64,000 nucleotides of DNA, from NCBI RefSeq assembly GCF_035084215.1, contig NW_027139217.1, positions 124,001 through 188,000 on the forward strand, read 5' to 3'. The notes under the pieces are model-generated. The model saw only the letters and a program-made list of their open reading frames with translations, searched no databases and was not told the DNA's origin. The first letter of the stretch is position 1; the number at the start of each line of letters is the position of its first letter. This DNA is from Heptranchias perlo. Lineage: Eukaryota. Below are positions 4,983-30,759 of this stretch, piece by piece. The translations under genes were made by a program, and so were the position numbers.

Positions 4983-6128
4983 ATTCATTAATTGATAATA
5001 GATTCATCAATTGAGATCTGTTTCATTAATTGATATCAGTTTCATCAATTGATATCAGATTCATTAATTGATACCAGATTCATTAATTGATATCAGTTTC
5101 ATTAATTGATATCAGATTCATTAATTGATACCAAATTCATTAATTGAGATCAGTTTCATTAATTGATATCAGATTCATTAATTGATCTCAGATTCATTAA
5201 TTGATATCAGATTCATTAATTGATCTCAGATTCATTAATTGATACCAAATTCATTAATTGAGATCAGTTTCATTAATTGATACCAGATTCATTAATTGAT
5301 ATCAGATTCATTAATTGATACCAGATTCATTAATTGAGATCAGTTTCATTAATTGATACCAGATTCATTAATTGATATCAGTTTCATTAATTGATATCAG
5401 ATTCATTAATTGATACCAGATTCATTAATTGATATCAGTTTCATCAATTGATACCAGATTCATTAATTGATACCAGATTCATTAATTGATATCAGTTTCA
5501 TTAATTGATACCAGATTCATTAATTGAGATCAGTTTCATCAATTGATACCAGATTCATTAATTGATACCAGATTCATTAATTGATCTCAGATTCATTAAT
5601 TGATACCAGATTCATTAATTGAGATCAGTTTCATTAATTGATACCAGATTCATTAATTGATCTCAGATTCATTAATTGATACCAGATTCATTAATTGAGA
5701 TCAGTTTCATTAATTGATACCAGATTCATTAATTGATACCAGATTCATTAATTGAGATCAGTTTCATTAATTGATCTCAGATTCATTAATTGATACCAGA
5801 TTCATTAATTGAGATCAGTTTAATTAATTGATACCAGATTCATTAATTGATACCAGATTCATTAATTGAGATCAGTTTCATCAATTGATATCAGATTCAT
5901 TAATTGATACCAGATTCATTAATTGATATCAGTTTCATTAATTGATATCAGATTCATTAATTGATCTCAGATTCATTAATTGATACCAGATTCATTAATT
6001 GATATCAGTTTCATTAATTGATACCAGATTCATTAATTGATACCAGATTCATTAATTGAGATCAGTTTCATTAATTGATACCAGATTCATTAATTGATCA
6101 GATTCATTAATTGATACCAGATTCATTA
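4983..6128. repeat. AT-rich 19-bp minisatellite (TTCATTAATTGATACCAGA and variants), about 60 copies
   Basis: Visible periodicity; variants GATACCAGA, GATATCAGT, GAGATCAGT, GATCTCAGA. Confidence 0.95.
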
Positions 6129-7149
6129 AGGGGACAGGACTCCTTTTCCCAGCCTCTCTCCTGAAGTTTTTTCCCAGTGGAGAGGGGCAGGTGACCAAAG
6201 TAACGGGATTTGGTGAATTGTCTGTCGCGCTCCTTGGTGACCTGGTGTTAGAATTGGGCGCACTCACCGCCCGGTCCGATTCTCACTCAGGGAATTAACT
6301 TTACAAAACTGTCGTCAACCTATTTAATGAATGACATGAAACTAATTAAAGTCTATGAAAAGATGAACCATTTTTGGAATCCCCATGAATCAACCTGTAA
6401 CTTTGTGTTGCGGACTGAAGGAAACGCTGACCTGGTTACCGAGTGAGGGGAAAATGTAAGAATGTTTGTGTTTTGTTTGTGAGACACTTTCCCGACTGTA
6501 TTTAGGAGTCGGGTTAAAAATGCTGAGTCTTTCTGACCCCAGGGATGTGTTAAATGAAGAGGAACAGCCGATTGCCGCCCGCTTTCCAGAGGAGAAGGAA
6601 CTCTCCCCGGAGCAAGTTGCAACATAATGAAAGATTTGCACCCGAATCAAATCAAGGAGCTTTGAGGAGTGAGGCCAGAGTGAGAATCGTTCGAGTCCGG
6701 AAAGCTCAGCATCTTCAGTGTTTGTAGAAATGGTCAGTGTTTCTCAGCCCAGGAATCTGGGGCAACCTTTGTTCAATTGAACAGGAGCGGGGCTTTGGAT
6801 CAAACAAGAGTTTAGCAGCAAACAGTGTTCTTACTGGGAGTGGTGGGACTGAGAAATCCTTAAACAGCGGCAACCCTGGAAAGCAGAGCTCCAAATCTCG
6901 GCTTCAATAAAGTGCTGAACTGAGAGAGCGGAGGGCAGATGGGCATTGGATTCAATCCCAACTCACTGGATCGAAACAAGGCAGTGAGTGTGGGCGGAGT
7001 GGGATTCCGGGACCTGTGTCTGAGCTGCACCTCGATCCGTCCCGTTCAGTAAAGAGAGAGCGGCAGACGGCTCCCAGACACGGCCCAGACCGGGAGCGGG
7101 AGCGGGAGCGGCTGCATTGGAGAGCGGGGATCCTGCGCTGGGGTTGCGG

Positions 7150-7399: not shown

Positions 7400-10300
7400 A
7401 CCCCCCCCGGGGAGACCCGGCCAATGCCCAAGTGATGATCGCCCTGGTGGAGCGACAACTCGCTGACGAGCTTTGGTCAGATCTCCGACGTTCCCCAGGC
7501 TGTGTAACCCTGGGCGACCCCCGAGTCCGAAGAACGGGATCGAATTTCCAGCCGATAATAAAATCAACCAGGGAGCGGAGGGAGGATAAAGCAAGAGGCC
7601 GGAGGGAGGAGGAGCCCAGAGCTTTAGGAGGGGACCAGACCCTATTCCCTCTGCTTCTCCACCCCCAGTGATGGAGCCAGGGCCTGGGACAGAGGGAAGA
7701 TCCTCCGGGCTGCCTCCCAGGAGAGCACGGGCTCAATTTCGAGGGACTCAATGTGGATCTTTCAGACTTCCAACAGGAGCAGATAAATGATGCAGTCCTC
7801 CAAATCATAAAACAAGAGGTAGTAGTGAGAAGTGGGCACCCCACTGAGGGTAAAACAAAAGGTGCGGGGCCTTATTATCCGGTAAAGAATGACCTTCTAT
7901 ACTGGGAGAGTGCGGGGCAGCAGCAGCAAGTTGACCAGTTGCTGGTGCCACGGACACAGAGGCAGATAGTCCTTGACTTGGCCACAAGCAACTATTCAGA
8001 GCTCACCTGGGGACAGAGCAAACTCGGGAGGGGCTGTTGAGGTGGGTCTTGTGGCCAGGGGTGGATGAAGTGATCCGGGGGTTCTGTCCCTCCTGTCCAC
8101 AGTGTCAGCTGTGTGGGCCCAGGCCTCACTATCACGCTCCATTAATCCCTCTCCCCGGAATTGAGGGGCCTTTCGAAAGGATCGGGATGGACCAGTGGGC
8201 CCGCTGGAGGGGTCAGCGCGAGGTCACCAATATATGTTGGGAGTTGTTGCCTGTTCCAGGCCCGATCCTGAGGCGATTCCACCGAGGATCACGGCCCCTA
8301 AAACCATAGCGGGCGGGTCAGTGAGAGCGTTCCCCGGGGTAGGGATCCCAAAGGACCAGGGACTCGCTCTGTGTCCACACTGATGAAGGGCCTCTGTCCC
8401 CTCCTCCATATTAAAAGTCTGAGGCCCTCCGTGGATCAACCCTCAAACCGAGGGCCGTGTGGAGAGGGTCAGTGGGACCCGCGAGTATGTTCAAAAAGGC
8501 CCGGCATAAAGATGGGTCAAATCGGGATCCTTCACTGCCCCGTCTCAGGCCTGCAGTCGGGGACGGGCCTCGGTCAGGGAGGGAGGGGCCTCGGTCAGGG
8601 AGGGAGGGGCCTCGGTCGGGGAGGGAGGGGCCTCGTTCGGGAGGGGCCTCGGTCGGGGAGGGAGGGGCCTCGGTCGGGGAGGGAGGGGCCTCGGGCGGGG
8701 AGGGAGGGGCCTCGGTCGGGGAGGGAGGGGCCTCGGTCGGGGAGGGAGGGGCCTCGGTCGGGGAGGGAGGGGCCTCGGTCGGGGAGGGAGGGGCCTCGGT
8801 CGGGGAGGGAGGGGCCTCGGGCGGGGAGGGAGGGGCCTCGGTCCTCCAATAATATTATTGAGCACAGAGTGAAGATGGGGCGCGGATTGAGGCGGTTCCC
8901 CCCATAGTGAGGGCTCATTTAGAGAGGGTGCAGGAAGAGCAGAGAGCCCAGTGTAAGAGAGGCTGCAGTCAGGAGGTTCCGACCAGGAGACCGAGTTACG
9001 GTCCTCGTTCCCACACCTGAAACAAGCTCTTTGCAGGGTGGCAGGGACTTTAGGAGGTTCTAGAGGCTGTGGGCCCAGTGAACTATAAGGTCAGGCAACC
9101 TCAGAGAAGGAAGCCTGACCAGAAAGACCATGTGCCCCTCCTGAAGCCATGGAGAGAGAGAGGCCCTCGCAGTGATGGAGAAAGCACTAGGGGGGCCCTG
9201 GCTCCAAGGTACAAAGCCCAGTTCACCTCTCCAGTGAGCTGCCTGAGGATCAGTGCAGGCAGGCTCAGCACCTGGGAGATGGAACCTGCAATGTATTCAC
9301 ATCTGGGCCTGGGAGGACGGGGGCCATCTGCTCTCACCTGGTGACACCACCAGGAGTGACAATAAAGGTCAGACCGGACCGAATCCCAGAAGCCAAACGG
9401 AGGGAGGTTCGCCAGGAGATTCCGAGGGTGTTGATCTTCGGGGTGATTGAAGAATCACGGTGAACGGAGCAGCCCCATTGTGTTGGTTCTGAATCCCGAT
9501 GGGAATTGGCGATTCTGAAATGACTTTCGGAAACTGAATGAGGATTGAAATCCGATGCTTTCCCGATGCCCCGGGGGGATGAGTTGATTGAGAGATTGGC
9601 GAAGGCCCCTTTGATCTTACCCCCTTCGATCTGACCAAGGGGTGCTGGCAGATCCCTTTAACAGAGGCTGCAAAAGGAAACCCGTGTTTCGGGGTTCCCG
9701 AGGGGCTCTCCCATTCACCGTCATGGCATTTGGATTCCATGGGGGCCCAGTCACCTTCCAAAGGCTCATGGACCAAGTGTTGGGACCCCCATACCCGGGG
9801 TGCAGCCTCATATCTGGATGATGCCATTATTTATAGTACAGACTGGTGATCCCATTTACCTGGAGTAGAGGCTGGATTACACAGCCTAAGAAAGATTGGG
9901 CTCACGGCAAACCCGGCCAAGGGCCACCTGGTGTTGTCGGAGGCCGACTACCGAGGGTGGGCTGTAGGAGGAGGGGTGGTGAAGTCTCAGGTAAATAGAG
10001 TTGAACCTATAAAAGCCTGGCCCCGACCGAGGAATAAGCAAGTCGGGACTTTCTTGGGCATCGTTGGTTACTCCTGCCGCTTTATTCCTGCCTTTCTCCC
10101 CGAGCCGCGCCCCCCACTTACCGAGCGGAGTAAAGCAGAGGCACTGAACCTTGTACGGTGGGACCCTGAGGCGGAGACTGCTTTCAGGGACCTGAACTAA
10201 ACACTGTGAATGATCTGAGCTCATGGTCCCAGACTTTAGTCCAAAATTTGTCTTGCAAACCGCTGCCTCCGAGGTGGGTTTGGGGGCCGTCCTCTCTCAA

Positions 10301-10760
10301 ATGGTGAAGGGGGAGGAAATCCTGTGCTCGACCTGAACAGAAAGCTGTTGCCCAGGGGGCAGCGACACGCTACGGCAGAGAAGGAGTGCCCACCAATTAA
10401 ATGGGCGGTAGAAACCCTTAAAACACCACCTGTTGGGGTACCAGCTTCTCCTCGTGACCAATCACGTGCCCCTCAAATGGATGTGGTCCAACAGTGAGAA
10501 AAATGCCCGGGTTACCCGGTGGATTTCGTCACTCCAGCCCGATTGTTTCGGGGTGGAACACCGGGCGGGAGTGGCACACGGTAACTCCGATGCCCTCTCC
10601 CGGGGGTATTGCCTCGCGGAGCGAGCAGCTGGAGCCGAGGGGTCTATGATGGGGGGGAGGATGTGTAAGGGAGGGCCCTGATCCCCAAATAAGGGTGTGG
10701 CCCTTTTAAGGAGACCTCCCCATTAAGAGGAAGGGTGTGGTCCTTTTAATGGGAACACCA
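7400..10760 (+). mobile_element. Degenerate Ty3/Gypsy LTR retrotransposon of the Gmr1-like type (integrase upstream of RT-RNase H)
   Basis: Integrase zinc finger (QLLVP..WPG..FCPSCPQCQ) and core start (PLP..PFERIGMD) at 7930-8500; GPVNYKV..HVPLLKPW at ~9070-9150; RT (DFRKLN, DLTKG.WQIPL, TFQRLMD, YLDD at 9811); RNase H (ASEVGLGAVLSQ, EKEC..IKWAVE, TNH.PL.W, DALSR) to ~10605; polypurine tract 10651-10661 followed by TGT. Confidence 0.85.
8566..8843. repeat. 21-bp G-rich minisatellite (GGGGCCTCGGTCGGGGAGGGA), about 13 copies, inside the Gypsy integrase
   Basis: Direct reading; source of the REGPRSG and PRPLPPR ORF artefacts. Confidence 0.92.
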
Positions 10761-11299: not shown

Positions 11300-11667
11300 G
11301 TTGAGGGGTTTATAATGTTCACAGGATTCGATAGGGTGAGACGGAGAAACTATTTCCTCTGGTGGGGGAGTCAAGAACGAGGGGACATCATCTTAAAATT
11401 AGAGTGAGGTCATTTAGGAGGGAAATCAGGAATCCCATTTTCACACAAAGGGAAGTGGAAATCTGGAACTCTCTCCCCAAAAGGCTGTGGATGTCGGGAC
11501 AATTGGAGCTTTTAAGACTGCGATTGATCAGAGTTTTGTTGGGTAACGGGATCAAGGGACACGGAGCAAAGCGGGAAAATGGAGATGAGGTACAGATCAG
11601 CCATGATCTGATTGAATGGAGGAGCAGGCTCGAGGGGCTGAATGGCCTCCTCCTGTTCCTATGTTCT
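11300..11667 (+). mobile_element. CR1 3' end fragment with tail, abutting the MHC promoter
   Basis: KLFPLVGESRTRGH..FTQR..WNSLP, then 3'UTR GAGGGGCTGAATGGCCTCCTCCTGTTCCTATGTTC. Confidence 0.88.
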
Positions 11668-11694
11668 TCTCTCTGTCACTTTCTGCAACAAACT

Positions 11695-11887
11695 ACTTTC
11701 AGTTCCTTGTTTATTGATCAAATCCTGTTCAGTTCATTCTCCCTGGCAACTGAACATGTACCGAGCAGTATTTCTCTGATTGGACGGTTCAGGATATTTG
11801 GACAGTTTATTTTTACACCGACACAAACTCTCTGGGACTACTCTGGCCGGAGTTTGCTGATTCACAGGCTGCTTTCATTCTGATTGG
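11695..11887 (+). promoter_or_regulatory. MHC promoter module: ISRE-like 11695-11706, X1 box 11742-11755, Y box 11776-11783, second inverted CCAAT 11880-11887
   Basis: ACTTTCAGTTCC (IRF-type); CCTGGCAACTGAAC resembles RFX X1 CCTAGCAACAGATG; CTGATTGG lies 20 bp downstream, the canonical X-Y spacing; possible S box AATCCTG at 11721-11727. Confidence 0.75.
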
Positions 11888-11934
11888 GCACAAACTGACT
11901 GTCGAAGCAAACAACATGGAGGTGACTGAGTGAG

Positions 11935-14900
11935 AGGGAGAGACCAGGAGGTACAGTGTTAGCACAGGGACAGAGAGAGGGAGAGACCAGGAGGTACAGT
12001 GTTAGCACAGGGACAGAGAGAGGGAGAGACCAGGAGGTACAGTGTTAGCACAGGGACAGAGAGAGGGAGAGACCAGGAGGTACAGTGTTAGCACAGGGAC
12101 AGAGAGAGGGAGAGACCAGGAGGTACAGTGTTAGCACAGGGACAGAGGGAGGGAGAGACCAGGAGGTACAGTGTTAGCACAGGGACAGAGGGAGGGAGAG
12201 ACCAGGAGGTACAGTGTTAGCACAGGGACAGAGAGAGAGAGAGACCAGGAGGTACAGTGTTAGCACAGGGACAGAGAGAGAGAGAGACCAGGAGGTACAG
12301 TGTTAGCACAGGGACAGAGAGAGAGAGAGACCAGGAGGTACAGTGTTAGCACAGGGACAGAGAGAGGGAGAGACCAGGAGGTACAGTGTTAGCACAGGGA
12401 CAGAGAGAGGGAGAGAGACCAGGAGGTACAGTGTTAGCACAGGGACAGAGAGAGGGAGGGACCAGGAGGTACAGTGTTAGCACAGGGACAGAGAGAGGGA
12501 GAGACCAGGAGGTACAGTGTTAGCACAGGGACAGAGAGAGGGAGAGACCAGGAGGTACAGTGTTAGCACAGGGACAGAGAGAGGGAGAGACCAGGAGGTA
12601 CAGTGTTAGCACAGGGACAGAGAGAGGGAGAGAGACCAGGAGGTACAGTGTTAGCACAGGGACAGAGAGAGGGAGAGACCAGGAGGTACAGTGTTAGCAC
12701 AGGGACAGAGAGAGGGAGAGACCAGGAGGTACAGTGTTAGCACAGGGACAGAGAGAGGGAGAGACCAGGAGGTACAGTGTTAGCACAGGGACAGAGAGAG
12801 GGAGAGAGACCAGGAGGTACAGTGTTAGCACAGGGACAGAGAGAGGGAGAGACCAGGAGGTACAGTGTTAGCACAGGGACAGAGAGAGGGAGGGACCAGG
12901 AGGTACAGTGTTAGCACAGGGACAGAGAGAGGTAGAGACCAGGAGGTACAGTGTTAGCACAGGGACAGAGAGAGGGAGAGACCAGGAGGTACAGTGTTAG
13001 CACAGGGACAGAGAGAGGGAGAGACCAGGAGGTACGGTGTTAGCACAGGGACAGAGAGAGGGAGGGACCAGGAGGTACAGTGTTAGCACAGGGACAGAGA
13101 GAGGGAGAGACCAGGAGGTACAGTGTTAGCACAGGGACAGAGAGAGGGAGAGACCAGGAGGTACAGTGTGAGCACAGGGACAGAGAGAGGGAGAGACCAG
13201 GAGGTACAGTGTTAGCACAGGGACAGAGAGAGGGAGAGACCAGGAGGTACAGTGTTAGCACAGGGACAGAGAGAGGGAGAGACCAGGAGGTACAGTGTTC
13301 GCACAGGGACAGAGAGAGGGAGAGACCAGGAGGTACAGTGTTAGCACAGGGACAGAGAGAGGGAGAGACCAGGAGGTACAGTGTTAGCACAGGGACAGAG
13401 AGAGGGAGAGACCAGGAGGTACAGTGTTAGCACAGGGACAGAGAGAGGGAGAGACCAGGAGGTACAGTGTTAGCACAGGGACAGAGAGAGGGCGAGACCA
13501 GGAGGTACAGTGTTAGCACAGGGACAGAGAGAGGGAGAGACCAGGAGGGACAGTGTTAGCACAGGGACAGAGAGAGGGAGAGACCAGGAGGTACAGTGTT
13601 AGCACAGGGACAGAGGGAGGGAGGGACCAGGAGGTACAGTGTTAGCACAGGGACAGAGAGAGGGAGAGACCAGGAGGTACAGTGTTAGCACAGGGACAGA
13701 GAGAGGGAGAGACCAGGAGGTACAGTGTTAGCACAGGGACAGAGAGAGGGCGAGACCAGGAGGTACAGTGTTCGCACAGGGACAGAGGGAGGGAGAGACC
13801 AGGAGGTACAGTGTGAGCACAGGGACAGAGAGAGCGAGAGACCAGGAGGTACAGTGTTAGCACAGGGACAGAGAGAGGGAGAGACCAGGAGGTACAGTGT
13901 TAGCACAGGGACAGAGAGAGGGAGAGACCAGGAGGTACAGTGTTAGCACAGGGACAGAGAGAGGGAGGGACCAGAGGTACAGTGTTAGCACAGGGACAGA
14001 GAGAGAGAGAGACCAGGAGGTACAGTGTTAGCACAGGGACAGAGAGAGGGAGAGACCAGGAGGTACAGTGTTAGCACAGGGACAGAGAGAGGGAGAGACC
14101 AGGAGGTACAGTGTTAGCACAGGGACAGAGAGAGGGAGAGACCAGGAGGTACAGTGTTAGCACAGGGACAGAGAGAGGGAGGGACCAGGAGGTACAGTGT
14201 TAGCACAGGGACAGAGAGAGAGAGAGACCAGGAGGTACAGTGTTAGCACAGGGACAGAGAGAGGGAGAGACCAGGAGGTACAGTGTTAGCACAGGGACAG
14301 AGAGAGGGAGAGAGACCAGGAGGTACAGTGTTAGCACAGGGACAGAGAGAGGGAGGGACCAGGAGGTACAGTGTTAGCACAGGGACAGAGAGAGGGAGAG
14401 ACCAGGAGGTACAGTGTGAGCACAGGGACAGAGAGAGGGAGAGAGACCAGGAGGTACAGTGTTAGCACAGGGACAGAGAGAGAGAGAGACCAGGAGGTAC
14501 AGTGTTAGCACAGGGACAGAGAGAGGGAGAGACCAGGAGGTACAGTGTTAGCACAGGGACAGAGAGAGGGAGAGACCAGGAGGTACAGTGTTAGCACAGG
14601 GACAGAGAGAGGGAGAGACCAGGAGGTACAGTGTTAGCACAGGGACAGAGAGAGGGAGAGACCAGGAGGTACAGTGTTAGCACAGGGACAGAGAGAGGGA
14701 GAGACCAGGAGGTACAGTGTTAGCACAGGGACAGAGAGAGGGAGAGACCAGGAGGTACAGTGTTAGCACAGGGACAGAGAGAGGGAGAGAGACCAGGAGG
14801 TACAGTGTTAGCACAGGGACAGAGAGAGGGAGAGACCAGGAGGTACAGTGTTAGCACAGGGACAGAGAGAGGGAGGGACCAGGAGGTACAGTGTTAGCAC

Positions 14901-15555
14901 AGGGACAGAGAGAGGGAGAGACCAGGAGGTACAGTGTTAGCACAGGGACAGAGAGAGGGAGAGACCAGGAGGTACAGTGTTAGCACAGGGACAGAGAGAG
15001 GGAGAGACCAGGAGGTACGGTGTTAGCACAGGGACAGAGAGAGGGAGGGACCAGGAGGTACAGTGTTAGCACAGGGACAGAGAGAGGGAGAGACCAGGAG
15101 GTACAGTGTTAGCACAGGGACAGAGAGAGGGAGAGACCAGGAGGTACAGTGTGAGCACAGGGACAGAGAGAGGGAGAGACCAGGAGGTACAGTGTTAGCA
15201 CAGGGACAGAGAGAGGGAGAGACCAGGAGGTACAGTGTTAGCACAGGGACAGAGAGAGGGAGAGACCAGGAGGTACAGTGTTAGCACAGGGACAGAGAGA
15301 GGGAGAGACCAGGAGGTACAGTGTTAGCACAGGGACAGAGAGAGGGAGAGACCAGGAGGTACAGTGTTAGCACAGGGACAGAGAGAGGGAGAGACCAGGA
15401 GGTACAGTGTTAGCACAGGGACAGAGAGAGGGAGAGACCAGGAGGTACAGTGTTAGCACAGGGACAGAGAGAGGGAGGGACCAGGAGGTACAGTGTTAGC
15501 ACAGGGACAGAGAGAGGGAGAGACCAGGAGGTACAGTGTTAGCACAGGGACAGAG
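11935..15555. repeat. 43-bp minisatellite, about 84 copies, between promoter and start codon
   Basis: Unit AGACCAGGAGGTACAGTGTTAGCACAGGGACAGAGAGAGGGAG, highly homogeneous. Confidence 0.97.
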
Positions 15556-15620
15556 GAGACCGTCTCCTGGAAAAGGATTTCCCACAAACTGCTCATCCCA
15601 GCCTGTCGAGGGAAGCAGCA

Positions 15621-15669
15621 ATGATTGGACTGATAGTTCTGGTCGTTCTGTGTGGAGGGGTCTCTGCAG
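15621..15669 (+). CDS. MHC class I exon 1, signal peptide MIGLIVLVVLCGGVSA
   Basis: ATG 15621, hydrophobic core, CAG/GTGAGT donor, phase 1 matches exon 2. Confidence 0.9.
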
Positions 15670-18600
15670 GTGAGTAATGGGGTCTGAGAGGGGCTCAGTG
15701 CCAGGCTGGGTATTGGGGCATTAACCCTCGGTCAGTGGGTAATGGGGTCTGAGAGGGGCTCAGTGCCAGGCTGGGTATTGGGGCATTAACCCTCGGTCAG
15801 TGGGTAATGGGGTCTGAGAGGGGCTCAGTGCCAGGCTGGGTATTGGGACATTAACCCTCGGTCAGTGGGTAATGGGGTCTGAGAGGGGCTCAGTGCCAGG
15901 CTGGGTATTGGGGCATTAACCCTCGGTCAGTGGGTAATGGGGTCTGAGAGGGGCTCAGTGCCAGGCTGGGTATTGGGGCATTAACCCTCGGTCAGTGGGT
16001 AATGGGGTCTGAGAGGGGCTCAGTGCCAGGCTGGGTATTGGGGCATTAACCCTCGGTCAGTGAGTAATGGGGTCTGAGAGGGGCTCAGTGCCAGGCTGGG
16101 TATTGGGGCATTAACCCTCGGTCAGTGGGTAATGGGGTCTGAGAGGGGCTCAGTGCCAGGCTGGGTATTGGGGCATTAACCCTCGGTCAGTGGGTAATGG
16201 GGTCTGAGAGGGGCTCAGTGCCAGGCTGGGTATTGGGGCATTAACCCTCGGTCAGTGGGTAATGGGGTCTGAGAGGGGCTCAGTGCCAGGCTGGGTATTG
16301 GGGCATTAACCCTCGGTCAGTGGGAAATGGGGTCTGAGAGGGGCTCAGTGCCAGGCTGGGTATTGGAGAGAGAGAGACCATGATTGAAGGGGTGCTGGAA
16401 ACAGTGTGATAGAGGGAGAGACCATGGGGTGGAGTGAGGAATGGGGGGACACGGACACACGCAGCACAACTCCATTTTCCCCCTTTGCTCCATATCCCTT
16501 GATGTCCTGACCCAACAAAAATCGATCAATCTCAGTTTTGAAAGCTCCAACGAACCCCCAGAATGCTCAGCCTTTTGGGGGAGAGAGTTCCAGATTCCCA
16601 CCACCCTTTGTGTGAAGAAATGCTTCCTGGTTTCACCCCTGAACGGCCTGGCTCGAATTTGAAGATTCCGTCCTCTTGTTCTTGTCTCCCCGACTAGACG
16701 AAGTAGTTTCTCCGTATCTACCCTATCAAATCCTTTTAACATTTTAAACACCCTCGATCAGATCACCCCTCAATCTTCTAAACTCGAGGGAATACAAGCC
16801 TCGTCTGTACAACCTGTCCTCGTAATTTAACCCTTTTAGCCCCGGGATCATTCTGGTGAATCTGGGCTGCACCCCCTCCAAGGCCAATCTATCCTTCCTG
16901 AGGTGCGGTGCCCAGAACTGAACACGGTCTCCAGATGTGGTCTGACCAGAGCTCTGCACAGCTGGAACATAACTTCCTCCCCTTTGTATTCCAGCCCCCG
17001 AGATAAAGGCCAACGTTCCATTAGCCTTTCCCAATCCTTTTTGTATCTCTCCACTGGCTTTTAATGATTTCTGTACTTGGACTCCCAAATCTCTCTGTTC
17101 CTCTCCAGTTCCTAGTTTCTCACCGTGTAGAAAATACTCTGATTTATCTTTCTTCGGTCTAAAGTCGATGACCTCACACTTTCCCACATTGAACTCCATC
17201 TGCCACAGTTTTGCCCACTCACTTAATCTGTCTCTGTCCCTTCACAACTCCCTGCTCCCGTCTACACTATTTCCTGTCCCTCCTAATTTAGTGTCGTCAG
17301 CAAACCCAGGCCCCTCTCCCTCAGTCTGTCAGGGGGTGTGTTACCCCAGGCCCCTCTCCCTCAGTCTGTCAGTGGGTGTGTTACCCCAGGCCCCTCTCCC
17401 TCAGTCTGTCAGGGGGTGTGTTACCCAAGGCCCCTCTCCCTCAGTCCCTGTCAGGGGGTGTGTTACCCCAGGCCCCTCTCCCTCAGTCTGTCAGTGGGTG
17501 TGTTACCCCAGGCCCCTCTCCCTCAGTCTGTCAGGGGGTGTGTTACCCCAGGCCCTTCTCCCTCAGTCCCTCAGTGGGTGTGTTACCCCAGGCCCATCTC
17601 CCTCAGTCTGTCAGTGGGTGTGTTACCCCAGGCCCCTCTCCCTCAGTCCCTCAGTGGGTGTGTTACCCCAGGCCCCTCTCCCTCAGTCTGTCAGTGGGTG
17701 TGTTACCCCAGGCCCCTCTCCCTCAGTCTGTCAGGGGGTGTGTTACCCCAGGCCCCTCTCGCTCAGTCTGTCAGTGGGTGTGTTACCCCAGGCCCCTCTC
17801 CCTCAGTCTGTCAGTGGGTGTGTTACCCCAGGCCCCTCTCCCTCAGTCTGTCAGTGGGTGTGTTACCCCAGGTACCACTCCCTCAGTCTGTCAGGGGGTG
17901 TGTTACCCCCGGCCCCTCTCCCTCAGTCTGTCAGGGGGTGTGATACCCCAGGCCCCTCTCCCTCAGCCTGTGTTGTGTTGATGTGGAGATGCCGGTGATG
18001 GACTGGGGTTGACAATTGTAAACAATTTTACAACACCAAGTTATAGTCCAGCAATTTTATTTTAAATTCACAAGCTTTCGGAGACTTCCTCCTTCCTCAG
18101 GTAAATGTTCAGGGACTCTGTGTTGTGTTGGGGATTATTTACAGGGAGTCTGTGTTATTTTGTTGGTTCATGCCCTGATCTCTCTCTCTCTCTCTCTCTG
18201 GGGTTGGTGTTTTGGGGTTGGTGTTTTGGGGTTCATGCCCTGATCTCTCTCTCTCTGGGGTTGGTGTTTTGGGGTTCATGCCCTGATCTCTCTCTCTCTC
18301 TGGGGTTGGTGTTTTGGGGTTCATGCCCTGATCTCTCTCTCTCTCTGGTGTTGGTGTTTTGGGGTTCATGCCCTGATCTCTCTCTGGGGTTGGTGTTTTG
18401 GGGTTCATGCCCTGATCTCTCTCTCTGGGGTTGGTGTTTTGGGGTTCATGCCCTGATCTCTCTCTCTCTGGGGTTGGTGTTTTGGGGTTCATGCCCTGAT
18501 CTCTCTCTCTCTGGGGTTGGTGTTTTGGGGTTCATGCCCTGATCTCTCTCTCTCTGGGGTTGGTGTTTTGGGGTTCATGCCCTGATCTCTCTCTCTCTGG

Positions 18601-21600
18601 GGTTGGTGTTTTGGGGTTCATGCCCTGATCTCTCTCTCTCTGGGGTTGGTGTTTTGGGGTTCATGCCCTGATCTCTCTCTCTCTCTGGGGTTGGTGTTTT
18701 GGGGTTCATGCCCTGATCTCTCTCTCTCTGGGGTTGGTGTTTTGGGGTTCATGCCCTGATCTCTCTCTCTGGGGTTGGTGTTTTGGGGTTCATGCCCTGA
18801 TCTCTCTCTCTCTGGGGTTGGTGTTTTGGGGTTCATGCCCTGATCTCTCTCTCTGGGGTTGGTGTTTTGGGGTTCATGCCCTGATCTCTCTCTCTCTCTG
18901 GGGTTGGTGTTTTGGGGTTCATGCCCTGATCTCTCTCTCTCTCTGGGGTTGGTGTTTTGGGGTTCATGCCCTGATCTCTCTCTCTCTGGGGTTGGTGTTT
19001 TGGGGTTCATGCCCTGATCTCTCTCTCTCTGTGTTTCAGGCTCTCACTCTCTCCGGTATTTTCTGACCGCAATGACCCCGATCCCTGGTCTGCCGCAGTT
19101 TGTTGCTGTCGGGTATGTGGACGAGGCCCAGTTTGTGATGTACGACAGCGAGCGGAGGGAGTTGATCCCACGGCGGTCCTGGATGGAGGAGAGGGAGGGG
19201 CCCGAGAACTGGGAGCGGAAGAAACAGCTGGTGCGAGGCGAGGAACAGTGGATGAAGGATTATATTCAGATCCTCCTGACCCGGACCAACCAGTCGGTCG
19301 GTGAGTTCACTCCCTCCCAACGCACTCGGGCTCTTCCTGCGGAGTCAGGGGGCGGAGAGCGGGGTCAGGGAGCGGGGAGCGGGGAGCGGGGTCAGGGAGC
19401 GGGGTCAGGGAGCGGGGAGCGGGGTCAGGGAGCGGGGAGCGGGGTCAGGGAGCGGGGAGCGGGGTCAGGGAGCGGGGAGCGGGGTCAGGGAGCGTGTCGG
19501 GGAGCAGGGTCGGGGCGGGGAGCGGGGTCAGGGGTCGTGGTCGGGGAGCGGGGTCGGGGCGGGGTCAGGGGTCAGGGAGCTGGGGCGGGGAGATGGGTCG
19601 GGGAGTGGGGTCGGGGTGGGGAGCGGCGTCAGGGGGCGGGGAGTGGGGTCAGGGGGCATGGAGTGGGGTCAGGGAGTGAGGTCAGGGGCAGGGAGCGGGG
19701 TCAGGGAGCGGGGTCAGGGGGCGGGTAGTGGGTCAGGGAGCGAGGTCAGGGTGCAGGGAGCGAGGTCAGGGGGCAGGGAGCGGGGTCAGGGGGCGGGGAG
19801 TGGGGTCAGGGGGCATGGAGCGGGGTCAGGGAGCGAGGTCAGGGGGCAGGGAGCGGGGTCAGGGGGCAGGGAGCGGGGTCAGGGGGCGGGGCCAGGGGTT
19901 GACATGCGATATTCTGACGGTCATGGACTCGGACCAACCAGTCGGGCGGTGAGTCCTCGGCCTCAAACCGCACTCGGGCTGATCCCGGGGTCAGGAGTGG
20001 GCAGGGCTGCTCCCCCTGGAAGTGAGGAAGTTCCACCCCCTCCCCCACTGTGTGACATAAGAACATAAGAAATAGGAGCAGGAGTAGGCCATCCGGCCCC
20101 TCGAGCCTGCTCCGCCATTCATAGAATCATAGAATTATAGAATCGTAGAAAATTTATGGCACAGAAGGAGGCCATTCGACCCATCGTGTCCGTGCCGGCC
20201 AAAAATGTGCCACCCAGCCTAATCCCACTTTCCAGCACTTGGTCCGTAGCCCTGTAGGTTATGGCACTTCAGGAGCACATCCAGGTACTTTTTAAATGAG
20301 TTGAGGGTTTCTGCCTCTCCCACCCTCTCAGGCGGTGAGTTCCAGACCCCCACCACCCTCTGGGTGAAAAAAATTCACCTCAGCTCCCCTCTAATCCTTC
20401 TACCAATTACTTTAAATCCATGCCCCCTGGGCATTGACCTCTCTGCTAAGGGAAATAGGTCCTTGCCCCTCATAATTTTATACACCGGGGAACATAGGAA
20501 CATAGGAACAGGAGTAGGCCATTCAGCCCCTCGAGCCTGCTCCACCATTTGATAAGATCATGGCTGATCTGTGATCTCACTCCATATACCTGCCTTTGGC
20601 CCATATCCCTTAATACCTTTGGTTGCCAAAAAGCTATCCATCTCAGATTTAAAATTAGCAATTGAGCTAGTATCAATTGCCGTTTGCAGAAGAGAGTTCC
20701 AAACTTCTACCACCCTTTGTGTGTAGAAATGTTTTCTAATCTCACTCCTGAAAGGTCTGGCTCTAATTTTTAGACTGTGCCCCCTACTCCTAGAATCCCC
20801 AACCAGCGGAAATAGTTTCTCTCTATCCACCCTATCTGTTCCTTTTAATATCTTATAAACTTCGATCAGATCACCCCTTAACCTTCGAAACTCTAGAGAA
20901 TACAACCCCAATTTGTGTAATCTCTCCTCGTAACTTAACCCTTGAAGTCCGGGTATCATTCTAGTAAACCTACGCTGCACTCCCTCCAAGGCCAATATGT
21001 CCTTCCGAAGGTGCGGTGCCCAGAACTGCTCACAGTACCTCAATTAAATCTCCCCTCAGCCTCCTTTGTTCAAAAGAAAACAACCCCAGCCCATCCAATC
21101 TTTCCTCAGAGCTAAAATTCTCCAGTCCTGGCAACATCCTCGCAAATCTCCTCTGTACCCTCTCTAGTGCAATCACATCTTTCCTGTAATGTGGTGACCA
21201 GAACTGTACACAGTACTCAAGCTGTGGCCTAACCAATGTTTTATACAGTTCCAGCATAACCTCCCTGCACTTATATTCGATGCCTTGGCCTAATAAAGGA
21301 AAGTATTCCATCTGCCTTCTTAACCACCTTATCTGTCCTACTACCTCGGGGATCTGTGGACATGCACTCCAAGGTCCCTCTGTTCCTCGACACCTCTCAG
21401 TATCCTCCCATTTATTGTGTGCTCCCTTGCCTTGTTTGCCCTCCCCAAAGGCACTACCTCACACTTCTCTGGATTGAATTCCATTTGTCACTTTTCTGCC
21501 CACCTGACCAGTCCATTGATATCTTCCTGCAGTCTACAGCTTTCCTCCTCACTAGCAACCACACGGCCAATTTTTGTATCATCTGCAAACTTCTTAATCA

Positions 21601-24600: not shown

Positions 24601-27600
24601 GTTGTGGGTGGGCGGCTTGCAGCAGTGGTAATGTGTGAGGGTGAGAGGAAGCTTCTGATGGGAAGAGTTGAGTACTGCTGGAAAGAGTTTGTTGGTATGT
24701 GGGTGATGGGGGTGTCGTGTGTGGGGCAGTTGGTTGGAGACACCACTTGACAGTTGACCTCACTCACCTTGACCACTCATGTCAGAGCATTGAACTTCTT
24801 CCTGCACTGCGTCCATGTTCGTGATGCTGTGGGCCTGGCATTGACTTCGTCCCCCGCTGCCTTGGGAGCATATATCTGGAGGGCCTCTTGACCCCCCGCG
24901 GATATAGGATGTCCCTCCTTCTGTCCACCTCTTGCACCAAGGCCTCTCGTGCATCATCAGAGAACCTTGGTGCACGCACTCTCACAGGCCTGGTACCAAC
25001 TCAGATCGGCAGATTGGTGAGGTCTGACCTGCAGATTGGAGGATGTGGGATTTAGTAGTGTGCAACCTTTATTCAATGTTTTAACATAACTCAACAGTTT
25101 GTAAACATAGGGAGGGGACCTGTATCTGTGTTTTACGTGTGCGATGTCTGATCTCCGTTCAGACTCTGTCCGAACCCGTATCTTATATTTTGCAAATATC
25201 AGAGTCCCTCAAACGTTGAGCAGCCCAGTTGTTGCTCATTAAAAATTCCACAGTTCCCATCATCATCGTGTTTCACGATATTGCAGCACAGATTCACTTC
25301 ACCATTGACTTCCTCCACTTCCTGCAGACACACTGCACCTTCCCTTTAAGAGGTGCAGGCTGCCTTTAAGTGGTGCGAGCCACTCGTGATATCTGGGCCC
25401 CTGCTGGTGAGCAGCCACTCACAGTGCAGGGAGTGCTGGCTGGACGCAGCAATCAGGTAAATCACCAGGCAGCACGAATGTTACGTTCTTCCCACATCTC
25501 ACCGACCGGGCACGGGTTCATCACGACCCGTGGAAGTGGTTTTCTCGGGCGGACCGAAAACACACCTCTTACTATAAGTTCAGGAACGATCGGGACACTC
25601 GCTGGGAGCACGGGGGGTCCTTTAAATACACAGATTGTGGTCCAGGGGGTCCTTTAAATATATAGATTGAGGTTCGGGGGTCCTTTAAATACACTGATCG
25701 GGGTCCGGGGGTCCTTTAAATACACTGATCGGGGTCCGGTGGGGGGGGTCCTTAAATACCCAGGCCGGGGTCCGGGGGTCCTTGAAATACACTGATCGGG
25801 GTCCGGGGGGTCCTTTAAATACACTGATCGGGGTCCGGGGGATCCTTTAAATACACTGATCGGGGTCCGGGGGGTTCCTTTAAATACACTGATCGGGGTC
25901 CGGGGGGTCCTTTAAATACACAGATCGGGGTCCGGGGATCCTTTAAATACACAGATCGGGGTCCGGGGGTCCTTTAAATACACAGATCGGGGTCCGGGGG
26001 TCCTTTAAATACACTGATCGGGGTCCGGGGATCCTTTAAATACACTGATCGGGGTCCGGGGGGGGGTCCTTAAATACCCAGGCCGGGGTCCAGGGGTCCT
26101 TTAAATACACTGATCGGGCTCCAGGGATCCTTAAAATACACTGATCGGGGTCCGGGGGATCCTTTAAATACACTGATCGGGGTCCGGGGGGTCCTTTAAA
26201 TACACAGATCGTGGTCCGGGGGTACTTTAAATACACTGATCGGGGTCCGGGGGGTCCTTTAAATACACAGATCGTGGTCCGGGGGTCCTTTAAATACACT
26301 GATCGGGGTCCGGGGGGTCCTTTAAATACACTGATCGGGGTCCGGGGGTCGTTTAAATACACTGATCGGGGTCCGGGGTCCTTTAAATACACTGATCGGG
26401 GTCCGGGGGTCCTTTAAATATACTGATCGGGGTCCGGGGGGTCCTTTAAATACACTGATCGGGGTCCGGGGGTCGTTTAAATACACTGATCGGGGTCCGG
26501 GGGTCCTTTAAATACACTGATCGGGGTCCGGGGGGTCCTTTAAATATACTGATCGTGGTCCGGGGGGTCCTTTAAATACACTGATCGGGGTCCGGGGGTC
26601 CTTTAAATACACTGATCGGGGTCCGGGGGGTCCTTTAAATACACTGATCGGGGTCCGGGGGTCCTTTAAATACACTGATCGGGGTCCCGGGGTCCTTTAA
26701 ATACACTGATCGGGGTCCGGGGGTCCTTTAAATACACTGATCGGGGTCCGGGGATCCTTTAAATACACTGATCGGGGTCCGGGGGGTCCTTTAAATACAC
26801 TGATCAGGGTCCGGGGGTCCTTTAAATACACTGGTTGGGGTCCGGGGGTCCTTTAAATACACTGATCGGGGTCCGGGGGTCCTTTAAATACACTGGTTGG
26901 GGTCCGGGGGGTCCTTTAAATACACTGATTGTCTCCGTAACCCATCTGCCCACTTCCCCCCTCCCCCCACCCCCGGCTTCCCAGGTGATTTCCGACTGTG
27001 AGCTGGGTGGTGATGGGATGGTGGACGGGGTCTCGGACTGGGTCTGACTGACCCCCTGTGTTTGATTGACAGGAATCCACATGATCCAGCAGATGACCGG
27101 CTGTGATCTGGGGGATGATGGGATCACCAGTGGGTTCTTTCAGTACGCCTGGGACGGGGAGGATTTCATCAACTTCGACAGGGATCAGATGGTGTGGGTA
27201 ACACCGGTACAGTGGGGAGAGATCACCAAGAACAAGTGGGACCAGGACACGCCCCGGAACCAAGGGGTGAAGGGATACCTGGAGGGGGAGTGCATCGAGT
27301 GGCTGAGGAAATACCTGGAGTACGGAGAGAGGGAACTGAGGGCCGGTGAGTGAGGGGGGAGTGAGAGTCGGTGAGTGAGGGGGGACTGAGAGTCGGTGAG
27401 TGAGGGGGGGAGTGAGAGTCAGTGAATGAGGGGGGACTGAGAGTCGGTGAGTGAAGGGGGGGACTGAGAGTCGGTGAGTGAGGGGGGAGTGAGAGTCGGT
27501 GAGTGAGGGGAGGAGTGAGAGTCGGTGAGTGAGGGGAGGAGTGAGAGTCGGGGAGTGAGGGGAGGAGTGAGAGTCAGTGAATGAGGGGGGACTGAGAGTT

Positions 27601-30600
27601 GGTGAGTGAAGGGGGGACTGAGAGTCGGTGGGTGAGGGGGGGAGTGAGAGTCAGTGAATGAGGGGGGACTGAGAGTCGGTGAGTGAAGGGGGGGACTGAG
27701 AGTCGGTGAGTGAGGGGGGAGTGAGAGTCGGTGAGTGAGGGGACGAGTGAGAGTCGGTGAGTGGGGGGGGGGAGTGAGAGTCGGTGAGTGAGGGGGGGAG
27801 TGAGAGTCGGTGAGTGATGGGACGAGTGAGAGTCGGTGAGTGAGGGGAGGAGTGAGAGTCGGTGAGTGAGGGGAGGAGTGAGAGTCGGGGAGTGAGGGGA
27901 GGAGTGAGAGTCGGTGAGTGAGGGGGGGAGTGAGAGTCGGTGAGTGAGGGGAGGAGTGAGAGTCGGGGAGTGAGGGGAGGAGTGAGAGTCGGTGAGTGAG
28001 GGGGGGGAGTGAGAGTCGGGGAGTGAGGGAGGGGACAGAGTCGGTGAGTGAGGGGGGAGTGAGAGTCGGTGAGTGATGGGACGAGTGAGAGTCGGGGAGT
28101 GAAGGGAGGAGTGAGAGTCGGTGAGTGAAGGGGGGGACTGAGAGTCGGTGAGTGATGGGACGAGTGAGAGTCGGTGAGTGAGGGGAGGAGTGAGAGTCGG
28201 TGAGTGAGGGGAGGAGTGAGAGTCGGGGAGTGAGGGGAGGAGTGAGAGTCGGTGAGTGAGGGGGGGAGTGAGTCGGTGAGTGAGGGGAGGAGTGAGAGTC
28301 GGGGAGTGAGGGGAGGAGTGAGAGTCGGTGAGTGAGGGGGGGGAGTGAGAGTCGGGGAGTGAGGGGGGAGTGAGAGTCGGTGAGTGATGGGACGAGTGAG
28401 AGTCGGTGAGTGAGGGGAGGAGTGAGAGTCGGTGAGTGAGGGGAGGAGTGAGAGTCGGGGAGTGAGGGGAGGAGTGAGAGTCGGTGAGTGAGGGGGGGAG
28501 TGAGAGTCGGTGAGTGAGGGGAGGAGTGAGAGTCGGGGAGTGAGGGGAGGAGTGAGAGTCGGTGAGTGAGGGGGGGAGTGAGAGTCGGGGAGTGAGGGAG
28601 GGGACTGAGAGTCGGTGAGTGAGGGGGGAGTGAGAGTCGGTGAGTGAGGGGGGGAATGGGGTCTAATCCCCAGTTTAAAGGGGTTTGTCCCGTTCCCTGG
28701 GGTCTAATCCCCAGTTTAAAGGGGTTTGTCCCGTTCCCTGGGGTCTAATCCCCAGTTTAAAGGGGTTTGTCCCGTTCCCTGGGGTCTAATCCCCAGTTTA
28801 AAGGGGTTTGCACCGTTCCCTGTCTCACACTGACTCGGCTCTGATCTGTTTTACTCTCAGTTACTCCCCAAGTGTTTCTTTCTGTGGACAAGGCCTCAGA
28901 CACTAAACCGGCCCAACTCTCCTGCCTGGTCACGGGGTTTTACCCTCGAGATATCGAACTCACCCTCCTGAGAAATGGACGGCCGATCTCAGACACTGAT
29001 TCCACTGGCATCCTGCCCAACCACGATGGCACCTACCAGATCAAGAGATGGGTTGAGATCGGGCCCGAGGACGGAGCCACCTACTCCTGTCAGGTGGATC
29101 ACAGCAGCAAAGCAGGAGTGGAGACCCGAGACTGGGGTAAGAGGATCAGTGAGTGCAGGGGGAGAGTCTGAGGCTGAGGATTAAAGATGTTTCTATTGCC
29201 TCTCCTCATTCTTCCTTCCAAAATACATCACTTCACACTTCTCTGTGTTAAATTTCATCTGCCATGTGTCTGCCCATTTCACCAGTCTGTCTGTGTCCTC
29301 CTGAACTCTGTTACTATCCTCCACATTGTTTACTACATTTCCGAGTTTCATGTCAGCTGCAAACTTTGAAATTATACCCTCTATACCTGTGACGGGGAAA
29401 TTTTATTCAGAAATACAAGAGATTTCCAAACCTGCCTGTCTATAATGAGCAGCACCATATATCTGGGTTACACTGAGTTATTGACTGGCTGGGATCTGTG
29501 TGTCAGGTGAAGGAGGCCGTTAGTCCATTGAACTCCTCAACCTTCCATAGAAAGGCCGTATCACCCATCACTGTACTTCCACCAGCCGACTCTGAGACTG
29601 TGCTGGGGATTCATCACTTGTGGAGGGGACTAGTAATGACTTTGGACTGATGGGTAATTCCAATATCTGCAGACAAGCAACAACTTGTATTTATAAAGTG
29701 CCTTTAATGGAGAGAAACGTCCCAAAGTGCTTCCCAGGAGTGGAATCAAAGCCACGCTGAACTTTCTAACCTCCAACTTGCTCTGATCAGACTGCCCATC
29801 ACATCGCAGACTCGAATCGAACTCAGTCTCAGGCACAGCTTTGGTCTCATTACTTCCTAATCAGCAGCGACTGTCGTTATTCATTTCTCTCCTCCTCCTT
29901 ATTCCCCCCACAGATGGGACGTTCCGAGTGACTCCGGGATCTTCAGAGGGACCGAATCTGGGTTTAATTGTTGGAATTGTTCTTGCTGCCGTCGTCCTGA
30001 TTGCTCTCGTCATTGGTGCCGTTGTCTGGAAGAAGAGAGGTAGGAAATGAGGACAGGATCTGTCCCACACGGGGATGAGCAGGTTCAAATGTTACAGCAC
30101 AAATGGCAGAACATTAGAGACTTCCCATCGACATGTGGGAAACTCCGACACAGTCCAGTGATGGACAGGGACCCGTACAGGGAGTGAAGGGACCGGGGCC
30201 CCGTACGGGGAGTGAAGGGACCGGGGCCCCGTACGGGGAGTGAAGGGACCGGGGCCCCGTACGGGGAGTGAAGGGACCGGGGCCCCGTACGGGGAGTGAA
30301 GGGACCGGGGCCCCGTACGGGGAGTGAAGGGACCGGGGCCCCGTACGGGGAGTGAAGGGACCGGGGCCCCGTACGGGGAGTGAAGGGACCGGGGCCCCGT
30401 ACGGGGAGTGAAGGGACCGGGGCCCCGTACGGGGAGTGAAGGGACCGGGGCCCCGTACGGGGAGTGAAGGGACCGGGGCCCCGTACGGGGAGTGAAGGGA
30501 CTGGGCCTGATTGGGGAGTGAAGGGACCGGGTGAAGAGAGGATATTGTCCGATGCCTGTTTCTCAGTGAGCCTCCTGTGAGTGCCCACAGGGAAATCTGG

Positions 30601-30736
30601 TCATTGCCCCTGTTTCTGGAGTAAGTTTGTGTCGGCGAGGGGCTGTGCTGATCGAGGAGCTGTTTGTAACTGAAGTTCCGTCTGTTTCTGTCTCTTGTAG
30701 GAGGAGAGAAAAAATCTGGTTACAGCCCAGCAAATC
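15621..30736 (+). CDS. MHC class I alpha chain, cartilaginous-fish UAA-like; 6 exons visible, 3' end outside window: join(15621..15669,19040..19300,27073..27345,28861..29136,29914..30039,30701..30736)
   Basis: All GT-AG phase-1 introns; 1021 nt spliced open frame; GSHSLRYF start, NQS glycosylation site at 86, C101-C164, Ig C1 alpha3, TM, GYSPA tail motif. Confidence 0.95.
15670..16365. repeat. 65-bp minisatellite starting exactly at the intron 1 donor, about 10.7 copies
   Basis: Units start at 15670, 15735, 15800 and so on; GTGAGT in copies 1 and 7 (16060), GTGGG in the others. Confidence 0.95.
16465..17304 (-). mobile_element. CR1 ORF2 3' fragment in intron 1
   Basis: FADD remnant, MEFNVGKCEV, QFWAPHLRKD, FFTQRVVGIWNSLP, with frameshifts. 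Confidence 0.9.
17305..17968. repeat. 40-bp minisatellite (CCCAGGCCCCTCTCCCTCAGTCTGTCAGTGGGTGTGTTAC), about 16 copies
   Basis: Direct reading. Confidence 0.95.
17979..18107 (-). mobile_element. Penelope-like element terminal fragment
   Basis: GATGTGGAGATGCCGG..GGACTGGGG..ACAACACCAAG..AGTCCA..AGCTTTCGGAG..CCTTCCTCAGG layout plus the hammerhead motif typical of Penelope terminal repeats. Confidence 0.6.
18066..18106 (-). ncRNA. Minimal type I hammerhead ribozyme-like motif
   Basis: Minus strand AUUUAC-CUGAGGA-A-GGAG(GAAGU)CUCC-GAAA-GC-UU-GUGAAU: stem I 6 bp, stem II 4 bp, palindromic AGCU in place of stem III. Confidence 0.6.
18165..19030. repeat. ~41-bp minisatellite GGGGTTGGTGTTTTGGGGTTCATGCCCTGAT(CT)n, about 21 copies, ending at the exon 2 acceptor
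   Basis: The last unit runs directly into GTGTTTCAG/exon 2. Confidence 0.95.
19040..19300 (+). CDS. MHC class I exon 2, alpha1 domain
   Basis: GSHSLRYFLTAMTPIPGLPQFVAVGYVDEAQFVMYDSERRELIPRRSWMEEREGPENWERKKQLVRGEEQWMKDYIQILLTRTNQSV; 261 nt. Confidence 0.97.
19345..19893. repeat. G-rich degenerate repeat (GGGAGCGGGGTCA-type)
   Basis: Direct reading; dense GGGG runs. Confidence 0.9.
19908..20008 (+). pseudogene. Relic 3' end of a second alpha1 exon plus the start of its intron 2
   Basis: GAT ATT CTG ACG GTC ATG (G) ACT CGG ACC AAC CAG TCG GGC G/GTGAGT, then CGCACTCGGGCT as found after the real exon 2. Confidence 0.85.
20054..22705 (-). mobile_element. Three nested CR1 insertions: A (20054-20120 and 22431-22705) contains B (20121-20487 and 21037-22430), which contains C (20489-21036)
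   Basis: Three separate CR1 tails (ACATAAGA, ATCATAGA, ACATAGGA types); the interrupted halves join into continuous CR1 sequence; RT ORF 21598-22284. Confidence 0.82.
22727..24075. repeat. C-rich ~21-bp minisatellite GTGTCTCTCTATT(C)6-11, about 60 copies
   Basis: Direct reading. Confidence 0.96.
24078..24330 (+). mobile_element. CR1 3' end fragment
   Basis: EVKKHF.TQRV.EVW..NFKSEIDRFL, 3'UTR ending CCTGTTCCTTTGTTCC. Confidence 0.85.
24380..24990 (-). mobile_element. Relic Myb/SANT-like gene of a PIF/Harbinger DNA transposon (two exons)
   Basis: RAPRFSDDAREALVQEVDRRRDILYP..EVNA..RTWTQCRKKFNAL..VVK/GTGAGT, then TTGCAG/EKVVHNRRQ; frameshift and stop present; element ends not identified. Confidence 0.7.
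25611..26929. repeat. ~31-bp minisatellite GGGGTCCGGGGGTCCTTTAAATACACTGATC, about 40 copies
   Basis: Direct reading; ends ~140 nt upstream of exon 3. Confidence 0.95.
27073..27345 (+). CDS. MHC class I exon 3, alpha2 domain
   Basis: GIHMIQQMTGCD..YAWDGEDFI..ITKNKW..YLEGECIEWLRKYLEYG; 273 nt; ACAG acceptor and GTGAGT donor. Confidence 0.97.
27346..28654. repeat. ~25-bp minisatellite GTGAGTGAGGGGGGAGTGAGAGTCG starting at the intron 3 donor, about 50 copies
   Basis: Most units recreate CG/GTGAGT. Confidence 0.95.
28658..28821. repeat. 41-bp repeat, 4 copies, just upstream of the exon 4 acceptor
   Basis: GGGGTCTAATCCCCAGTTTAAAGGGGTTTGTCCCGTTCCCT. Confidence 0.95.
28861..29136 (+). CDS. MHC class I exon 4, alpha3 Ig C1 domain
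   Basis: VTPQVF..LSCLVTGFYPRDI..ILPNHDGTYQ..YSCQVDHSS..W; 276 nt. Confidence 0.97.
29205..29390 (-). mobile_element. Small CR1 RT fragment in intron 4
   Basis: Minus strand ISKFAAD..WADTWQMKFNTEKCEVM. Confidence 0.75.
29675..29745 (-). mobile_element. Probable L2/SINE 3' tail fragment
   Basis: CAACAACTTGTATTTATAAAGTGCCTTT..AAACGTCCCAAAGTGCTT is the reverse complement of a typical L2-type terminus; recognised from memory. Confidence 0.45.
29914..30039 (+). CDS. MHC class I exon 5, connecting peptide and transmembrane segment
   Basis: DGTFRVTPGSSEGPNLGLIVGIVLAAVVLIALVIGAVVWKKR; pyrimidine tract with CAG acceptor, GTAGGA donor. Confidence 0.93.
30172..30530. repeat. 28-bp palindrome-rich minisatellite CCGTACGGGGAGTGAAGGGACCGGGGCC, about 12 copies
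   Basis: Direct reading. Confidence 0.95.
30701..30736 (+). CDS. MHC class I exon 6, cytoplasmic GGEKKSGYSPAN
   Basis: TCTCTTGTAG acceptor, GTAAGT donor, 36 nt, phase 1, YxxA motif as in class I tails. Confidence 0.88.
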
Positions 30737-30759
30737 GTAAGTGTGCAAATAGTGCAAGG

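Follow-up and report, generated by a model that had tools for sequence, protein, structure and literature searches.

A 43-bp minisatellite array lies between an ISRE-X-Y promoter module and the start codon of a shark MHC class I gene

In the stretch of DNA analysed here (the window: 64,000 nucleotides of Heptranchias perlo, contig NW_027139217.1), a class I-type promoter module and the start codon of the gene downstream of it are separated by a long tandem array, which raises the question of where transcription would begin and whether the array becomes part of the transcript. The original prediction had described ISRE-like, X1 and Y boxes followed by the repeat units and the ATG, and had placed the array in the 5'UTR, in a 5'UTR intron or between enhancer and core promoter. 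The class I identity and the SXY geometry of the locus were both borne out, with an open class I frame and an X-Y distance of 20 bp. The second CCAAT box, the upstream ORF, the S-like element, the exact left edge of the array and the conserved pre-ATG segment did not figure in that prediction, nor did the minisatellites beside the other exons. The features of the locus are listed in Table 1.

Table 1. Features of the class I locus and its upstream region (positions in the window)
Feature	Position	Strand	Remarks
Retroelement 3' end	11303..11667	+	74-89% identity to five other copies in the window (blastn)
ISRE/IRF-E-like site	11695..11706	+	sequence
Weak S-box-like 7-mer	11720..11726	+	15 bp before X
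X1 (RFX)-like box	11742..11755	+	
Y box (inverted CCAAT)	11776..11785	+	20 bp after X
Second inverted CCAAT box	11880..11889	+	absent from the original prediction
Five-codon upstream ORF	11916..11933	+	A at -3, G at +4 (strong context); overlaps left edge of array
43-bp minisatellite, 84 copies	11924..15555	+	77% purine on the sense strand
Conserved pre-ATG segment, likely 5'UTR	15564..15620	+	back-translation matches
Leader peptide exon	15621..15669	+	same as leader of P0006 and P0007
Alpha1 exon	19040..19300	+	Asn at conserved Tyr59 position
Alpha2 exon	27073..27345	+	best PDB match nurse-shark class I 6lup, E 4.3e-37
Alpha3 exon	28861..29136	+	100% identity to P0006 and P0007
Connecting peptide and transmembrane exon	29914..30039	+	
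First cytoplasmic exon	30701..30736	+	tblastn with P0006 tail; acceptor present

The ATG at 15621 is the start of an open MHC class I frame on the + strand. On joining, exons 1-5 (leader to transmembrane) gave a single open frame with canonical splice sites, and the exon types of a class I heavy chain, namely leader, alpha1-3, transmembrane and cytoplasmic, were found in one frame. Most of this shark MHC class I heavy-chain gene lies inside the window, and its closest named proteins are P0007 (90% over 328 residues) and P0006, both of Heptranchias perlo. The last cytoplasmic exon of P0006 was not found in 30737-64000 and is either outside the window or missing. This region is occupied by a 22-bp CT/GT satellite of more than 30 kb, broken by two 3715-bp retroelement copies (35120-38834 and 55676-59390) with 99.95% identity, and the pair either arose by recent duplication or was duplicated in the assembly. 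Within 28861-30039, the alpha3 and transmembrane exons match two H. perlo paralogues exactly, and alpha1 differs from theirs by 17-34%. Identical alpha3 and transmembrane sequences next to a diverged alpha1 suggest that homogenisation or exon exchange may have occurred among the paralogues.

Eight conserved peptide-anchoring residues, which we take to be the test list for classical class I, were compared, and the gene departs from the classical (UAA) type in that seven of the eight are present and Asn replaces Tyr59, a residue kept in P0006, P0007 and nurse-shark 6LUP. In a tree set of 29 rows, from which two proteins were dropped as their domains were not parsed, alpha1 grouped with multicopy class I of Heterodontus (O19480), Mustelus, Scyliorhinus, Carcharodon and Pristiophorus (support 100/97) and left 6LUP outside this grouping. 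The alpha2 clade of the same analysis had a support of 96/88, no row of the set carrying a lineage label. UBA is a UAA-derived multicopy nonclassical class I family of sharks (PMC12562908; PMC10751288). The gene resembles a UBA-type family in the clustering of alpha1 with multicopy class I genes and in the loss of Tyr59, whereas its alpha3 and transmembrane sequences resemble Squalus Q8HWH7 and H. perlo P0006. The gene probably belongs to the UAA-derived multicopy nonclassical family (UBA type).

The predicted ISRE-like, X1 and Y boxes with their 20-bp X-Y spacing were present at 11695-11785. The combined ISRE-X-Y pattern occurred once in the window versus 0/100 dinucleotide shuffles, a test that is optimistic since the pattern was built from consensus motifs after the sequence had been viewed. 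The 7-mer at 11720-11726 is presumed to resemble an S box. As predicted, a retroelement tail, presumably of the CR1 type, ends near 11667, just before the ISRE and 28 bp upstream of it. Farther upstream of the promoter, a degenerate region at about 7700-10750 looks by eye like the pol region of an LTR retrotransposon. A TATA box was looked for and not found in 11660-15680. According to PMC4374748, mouse NLRC5 modules have S-X distances within 16 bp and X-Y distances of 20-22 bp, and those of NLRC5 target genes occupy positions upstream of the start site in the -500/+50 interval. The shark X-Y distance of 20 bp falls into this range, and at the place of the S box (about 16 bp before X) there is a weak S-like 7-mer at 15 bp, which is substituted in the second promoter copy described below. 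The distance from X to the ATG is 3879 bp as assembled and 247 bp if the array is removed. The array is an insertion, on the 3' side, into a promoter of otherwise normal spacing.

Repeat detection placed the array at 11932-15555 with a period of 43, 84.0 copies and 97% matches, in agreement with the roughly 84 units that had been predicted ahead of the ATG at 15621. Its real left edge lies near 11924, as judged from letters there that recur inside array contigs. With head-to-tail units of 43 bp x 84, the array is a minisatellite (units of 10-100 bp). The units are of 17 types in irregular order, with one repeated block of variants, and each contains a near-palindromic 10-mer. A fold z-score of -7.7 for the array was rejected as a sign of function, since the near-palindrome is repeated and the shuffles destroy the repeat. 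Neither a polyadenylation hexamer nor an AUG was found within the array. The claim that the repeat has no ATG on the sense strand was thus correct, though this is expected by chance (P(no ATG)=0.67), and selection against ATG in the array was rejected on this value; 5 of the 129 single substitutions of the unit would create an ATG, and 10 distinct substitutions were seen. The left and right flanks of the array were also tried as duplicates of one another and rejected, as 316/2000 shuffles scored as high.

Contigs of four sequencing runs from one sample (X5, X7, X8 and a DNA run) were compared with 11668-11995. Runs X5, X7 and X8 are guessed to be RNA and may be DNA, X8 having tagmentation-type adapter letters; the contigs reveal neither start sites nor expression levels. 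On 11668-11995 there were 1382, 568 and 467 contigs in the presumed-RNA runs versus 133 in the DNA run. Array sequence made up most of the contig pieces listed. One X8 contig of 290 letters spans 11671-11961 with one gap and six letter differences, located at 11714, 11724, 11741, 11840, 11846 and 11848. These located differences leave the ISRE, the X core, the Y box, the second CCAAT box and the upstream ATG unchanged, and one substitution falls inside the S-like element. A second promoter copy, a variant from the same sample, is thus also joined to the array, which rules out an assembly error at the left junction. The possibility of a misassembly, which the original prediction had raised, is thereby answered for the left junction, which recurs in the X8 variant copy, and for that junction alone. 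Comparison of the two copies argues for the promoter-array arrangement being a family feature, common to paralogues, rather than a one-off displacement. In three X5 contigs the array leads into 22 letters, 20 of them matching the pre-ATG flank; this variant right junction, a loose end, falls below the bridging rule of 31 letters. The DNA run contained further diverged promoter copies with other flanks. X7 and X5 were without cover on 11668-11920, and the DNA run had contigs on 11668-11839 and a hole at 11844-11920; these gaps prove nothing. In short contigs such as these, all from a single sample, the array is collapsed, and none of the listed pieces spans its length.

The 56 bp directly upstream of the ATG are conserved in four other shark genera, Heterodontus, Carcharodon, Scyliorhinus and Mustelus. 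Among ten N-terminal extensions tested by back-translation, six matched this segment, each with 0/100 shuffles (Heterodontus P0011, P0029 and P0204; Carcharodon P0183; Scyliorhinus P0190; Mustelus P0184). The extension of P0004 matched as well (0/200 shuffles), and those of P0193, P0036, P0207 and P0028 gave no match to the segment. The homology ends 8-9 bp short of the right end of the array, and the P0190 and P0204 models begin at ATGs 51-54 nt upstream of the leader. The reading of other sharks' models through the pre-ATG segment suggests that the segment is exonic and that transcription starts at or upstream of the right end of the array. In the horn-shark model P0011, which aligns to 15528-15671 (E 3.6e-14), 5.5 copies of an 18-residue (54-bp) repeat stand directly before the segment. 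Homology of this 54-bp unit to the 43-mer was rejected (170/300 shuffles scored as high), as was a match of the white-shark extension to the 43-bp unit (133/300 shuffles). A scan of metagenomes with the pre-ATG motif returned three matches, all with unrelated flanks. Downstream of the array, a putative kB-like site lies at 15572-15582, and the matching codons are kept in the extensions of several sharks. The best acceptor candidate in the segment is an AG ending at 15601.

At the left edge of the array, a donor-like GTRAG at 11930 is overlapped by the upstream ORF. The skate protein P0027 and P0028 have an in-frame Met 16 codons before the leader, and their first three residues are those of the upstream ORF in the window. 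Homology of this ORF to the skate N-terminal extension was rejected at the protein level, where 481/5000 shuffles scored as high; the value of 5/300 at the DNA level concerns three codons only, which were chosen after the fact.

Each of the six exons in the window is bordered, on one side or both, by a tandem array no more than 143 bp away, and tandem repeats make up 57% of 11668-30737. The 43-bp array ends 65 bp upstream of the leader exon and, since every exon is flanked by arrays, it probably counts as just another minisatellite in a gene rich in repeats. Unrelated minisatellites adjoin nearly every exon edge and were found at 15670-16366, 18199-19031, 19339-19897 and 25613-26929 as well as at 27337-28655, 28657-28822, 30168-30531 and 30760-35120, and those starting at 15670 and 27337 begin on a splice donor and repeat its sequence. 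Apart from these, an AT-rich 19-bp array of 60 copies with a near-palindromic unit is located at 4983-6129, the arrays elsewhere being GC-rich.

We tentatively favour, at somewhat less than an even chance, transcription from the left edge of the array, which would then form a long AUG-free 5' leader. The SXY-type module is intact and, to judge from its motifs, may bind RFX, NF-Y and NLRC5, and the two CCAAT boxes would set initiation at or just inside the left edge of the array. The array would be retained in the mRNA ahead of the conserved 5'UTR, and the five-codon upstream ORF, if transcribed, would be followed by reinitiation downstream. The array would most likely have originated from the same expansion process as the minisatellites at every exon edge, and a copy-number effect on expression, if any, would be a by-product. 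A start at the left edge is consistent with the normal geometry obtained on removal of the array (247 bp from X to ATG) and, by analogy, with mouse NLRC5 modules, which sit just upstream of start sites (PMC4374748). Retention of the array in the leader is consistent with the P0011 model, which reads through its own repeats into the pre-ATG segment, and with the contigs of the presumed-RNA runs, which cover the array and, in the case of X8, bridge promoter and array. However, the array contigs might derive from pre-mRNA or from other loci, as some have unrelated flanks, and the N-terminal extensions in the other sharks' models may be ab initio predictions. Moreover, the donor at 11930 and the acceptor at 15601 fit an intron, and two intronic arrays also begin at donors. 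A leader of 3.7 kb would be very unusual, which counts against a retained array. Among the three placements originally proposed, the transcribed 5' leader is somewhat favoured, and the enhancer-promoter gap and the intron less so.

Transcription might instead start in the last few units or just after the array, with the SXY module 3.7 kb upstream acting as a looped enhancer or only weakly, and with long-array copies being poorly expressed. The conserved segment begins 8-9 bp past the array and has the kB-like site, and in array-free coordinates the second CCAAT box lies about 45 bp before this segment, which is near the start expected from the usual distance between CCAAT box and start site. 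A right-end start is nevertheless doubtful, given that at mouse NLRC5 targets the distance of SXY modules from the start stays within -500/+50 (PMC4374748) and that the module motifs are intact in two promoter copies; the wide coverage of the array by contigs of the presumed-RNA runs weakly points the same way. Removal of the array as a 5'UTR intron, with a short first exon to 11929 spliced to the AG at 15601, is unlikely. This splice would place the upstream ATG in the leader frame with 11 extra codons, and it has on its side the GTRAG donor at 11930, an acceptor pyrimidine fraction of 0.70 (0.65-0.91 for five true acceptors) and the other arrays of the gene, all of which are intronic and hug exon edges, two from the donor. 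Against it, the annotations of P0006 and P0007, the nearest relatives, begin at the leader Met without extension, whereas the models of other sharks use upstream in-frame ATGs, and conservation reaches about 35 bp upstream of the acceptor into a part that other models call exon. The letters of the donor correspond to a unit variant that also occurs inside arrays, five of the donor/acceptor pairings tried gave an open frame, so that the frame match is weak, and the resemblance to the skate N-terminal extension did not reach significance (481/5000). Among the contigs listed, none ran with a loose end from 11929 into the leader exon, which proves nothing.

Finally, the junctions may be real and the array length an assembly artefact, or the gene a silent duplicate copy whose array has no bearing on expression. 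None of the listed contigs spans the array, the last exon is not in the window, Tyr59 is lost in alpha1, and the 3' region is a satellite of more than 30 kb with a 99.9% identical 3.7-kb duplicate. However, the units of the array are heterogeneous and irregularly ordered (17 types), frame and splice sites are intact over six exons, and the promoter-array junction was found again in the variant copy, which makes this explanation very unlikely.

If the array lies in the leader, as favoured here, or splits the enhancer from the start, a vertebrate class I promoter can take up kilobases of repeat where it is most constrained, and class I expression could then be set by how array length differs between paralogues or alleles. 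An intronic array would be of little consequence, as just another minisatellite in a gene of 57% repeat. A bolder proposal is that shark class I genes have an expandable repeat slot between enhanceosome and conserved 5'UTR, filled independently (43 bp here, 54 bp in horn shark) and kept in the mature mRNA, the length of which would be a heritable expression dial across paralogues and alleles; we consider this quite improbable. The locus also provides a shark ISRE-S-X-Y module with mammalian spacing that is directly testable. The arrangement is a real and apparently undescribed variant of known parts, for which a regulatory role is only possible.

Regulatory VNTRs include the insulin-linked repeat and the repeat in the 5'UTR of thymidylate synthase. 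The shark array resembles them as a 5' tandem repeat whose copy number could alter output, and differs in its length of 3.6 kb and in being common to paralogues. In the open-access literature searched, no report was found of such arrays in shark class I promoters or of shark class I cis-regulation. The mammalian NLRC5-dependent class I SXY promoters, as given in PMC4374748, share with the shark module an X-Y distance of 20 bp, the upstream ISRE and, once the shark array is removed, about 250 bp to the ATG, and the weak S-like element of the shark stands at a similar distance from X (about 15-16 bp). In contrast to these, the shark gene has 3.6 kb of repeat between module and ATG, and its putative module has a second CCAAT box, an upstream ORF and a weak S box. 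The nearest class I precedent found is HLA-C, for which PMC5785035 describes an NK-specific upstream promoter with variable 5' leaders. In both genes, class I expression would be shaped by what lies between the leader exon and a start site upstream of it, as has been demonstrated for HLA-C, which, unlike the shark gene, uses a second promoter and alternative splicing and no tandem repeat (PMC5785035).
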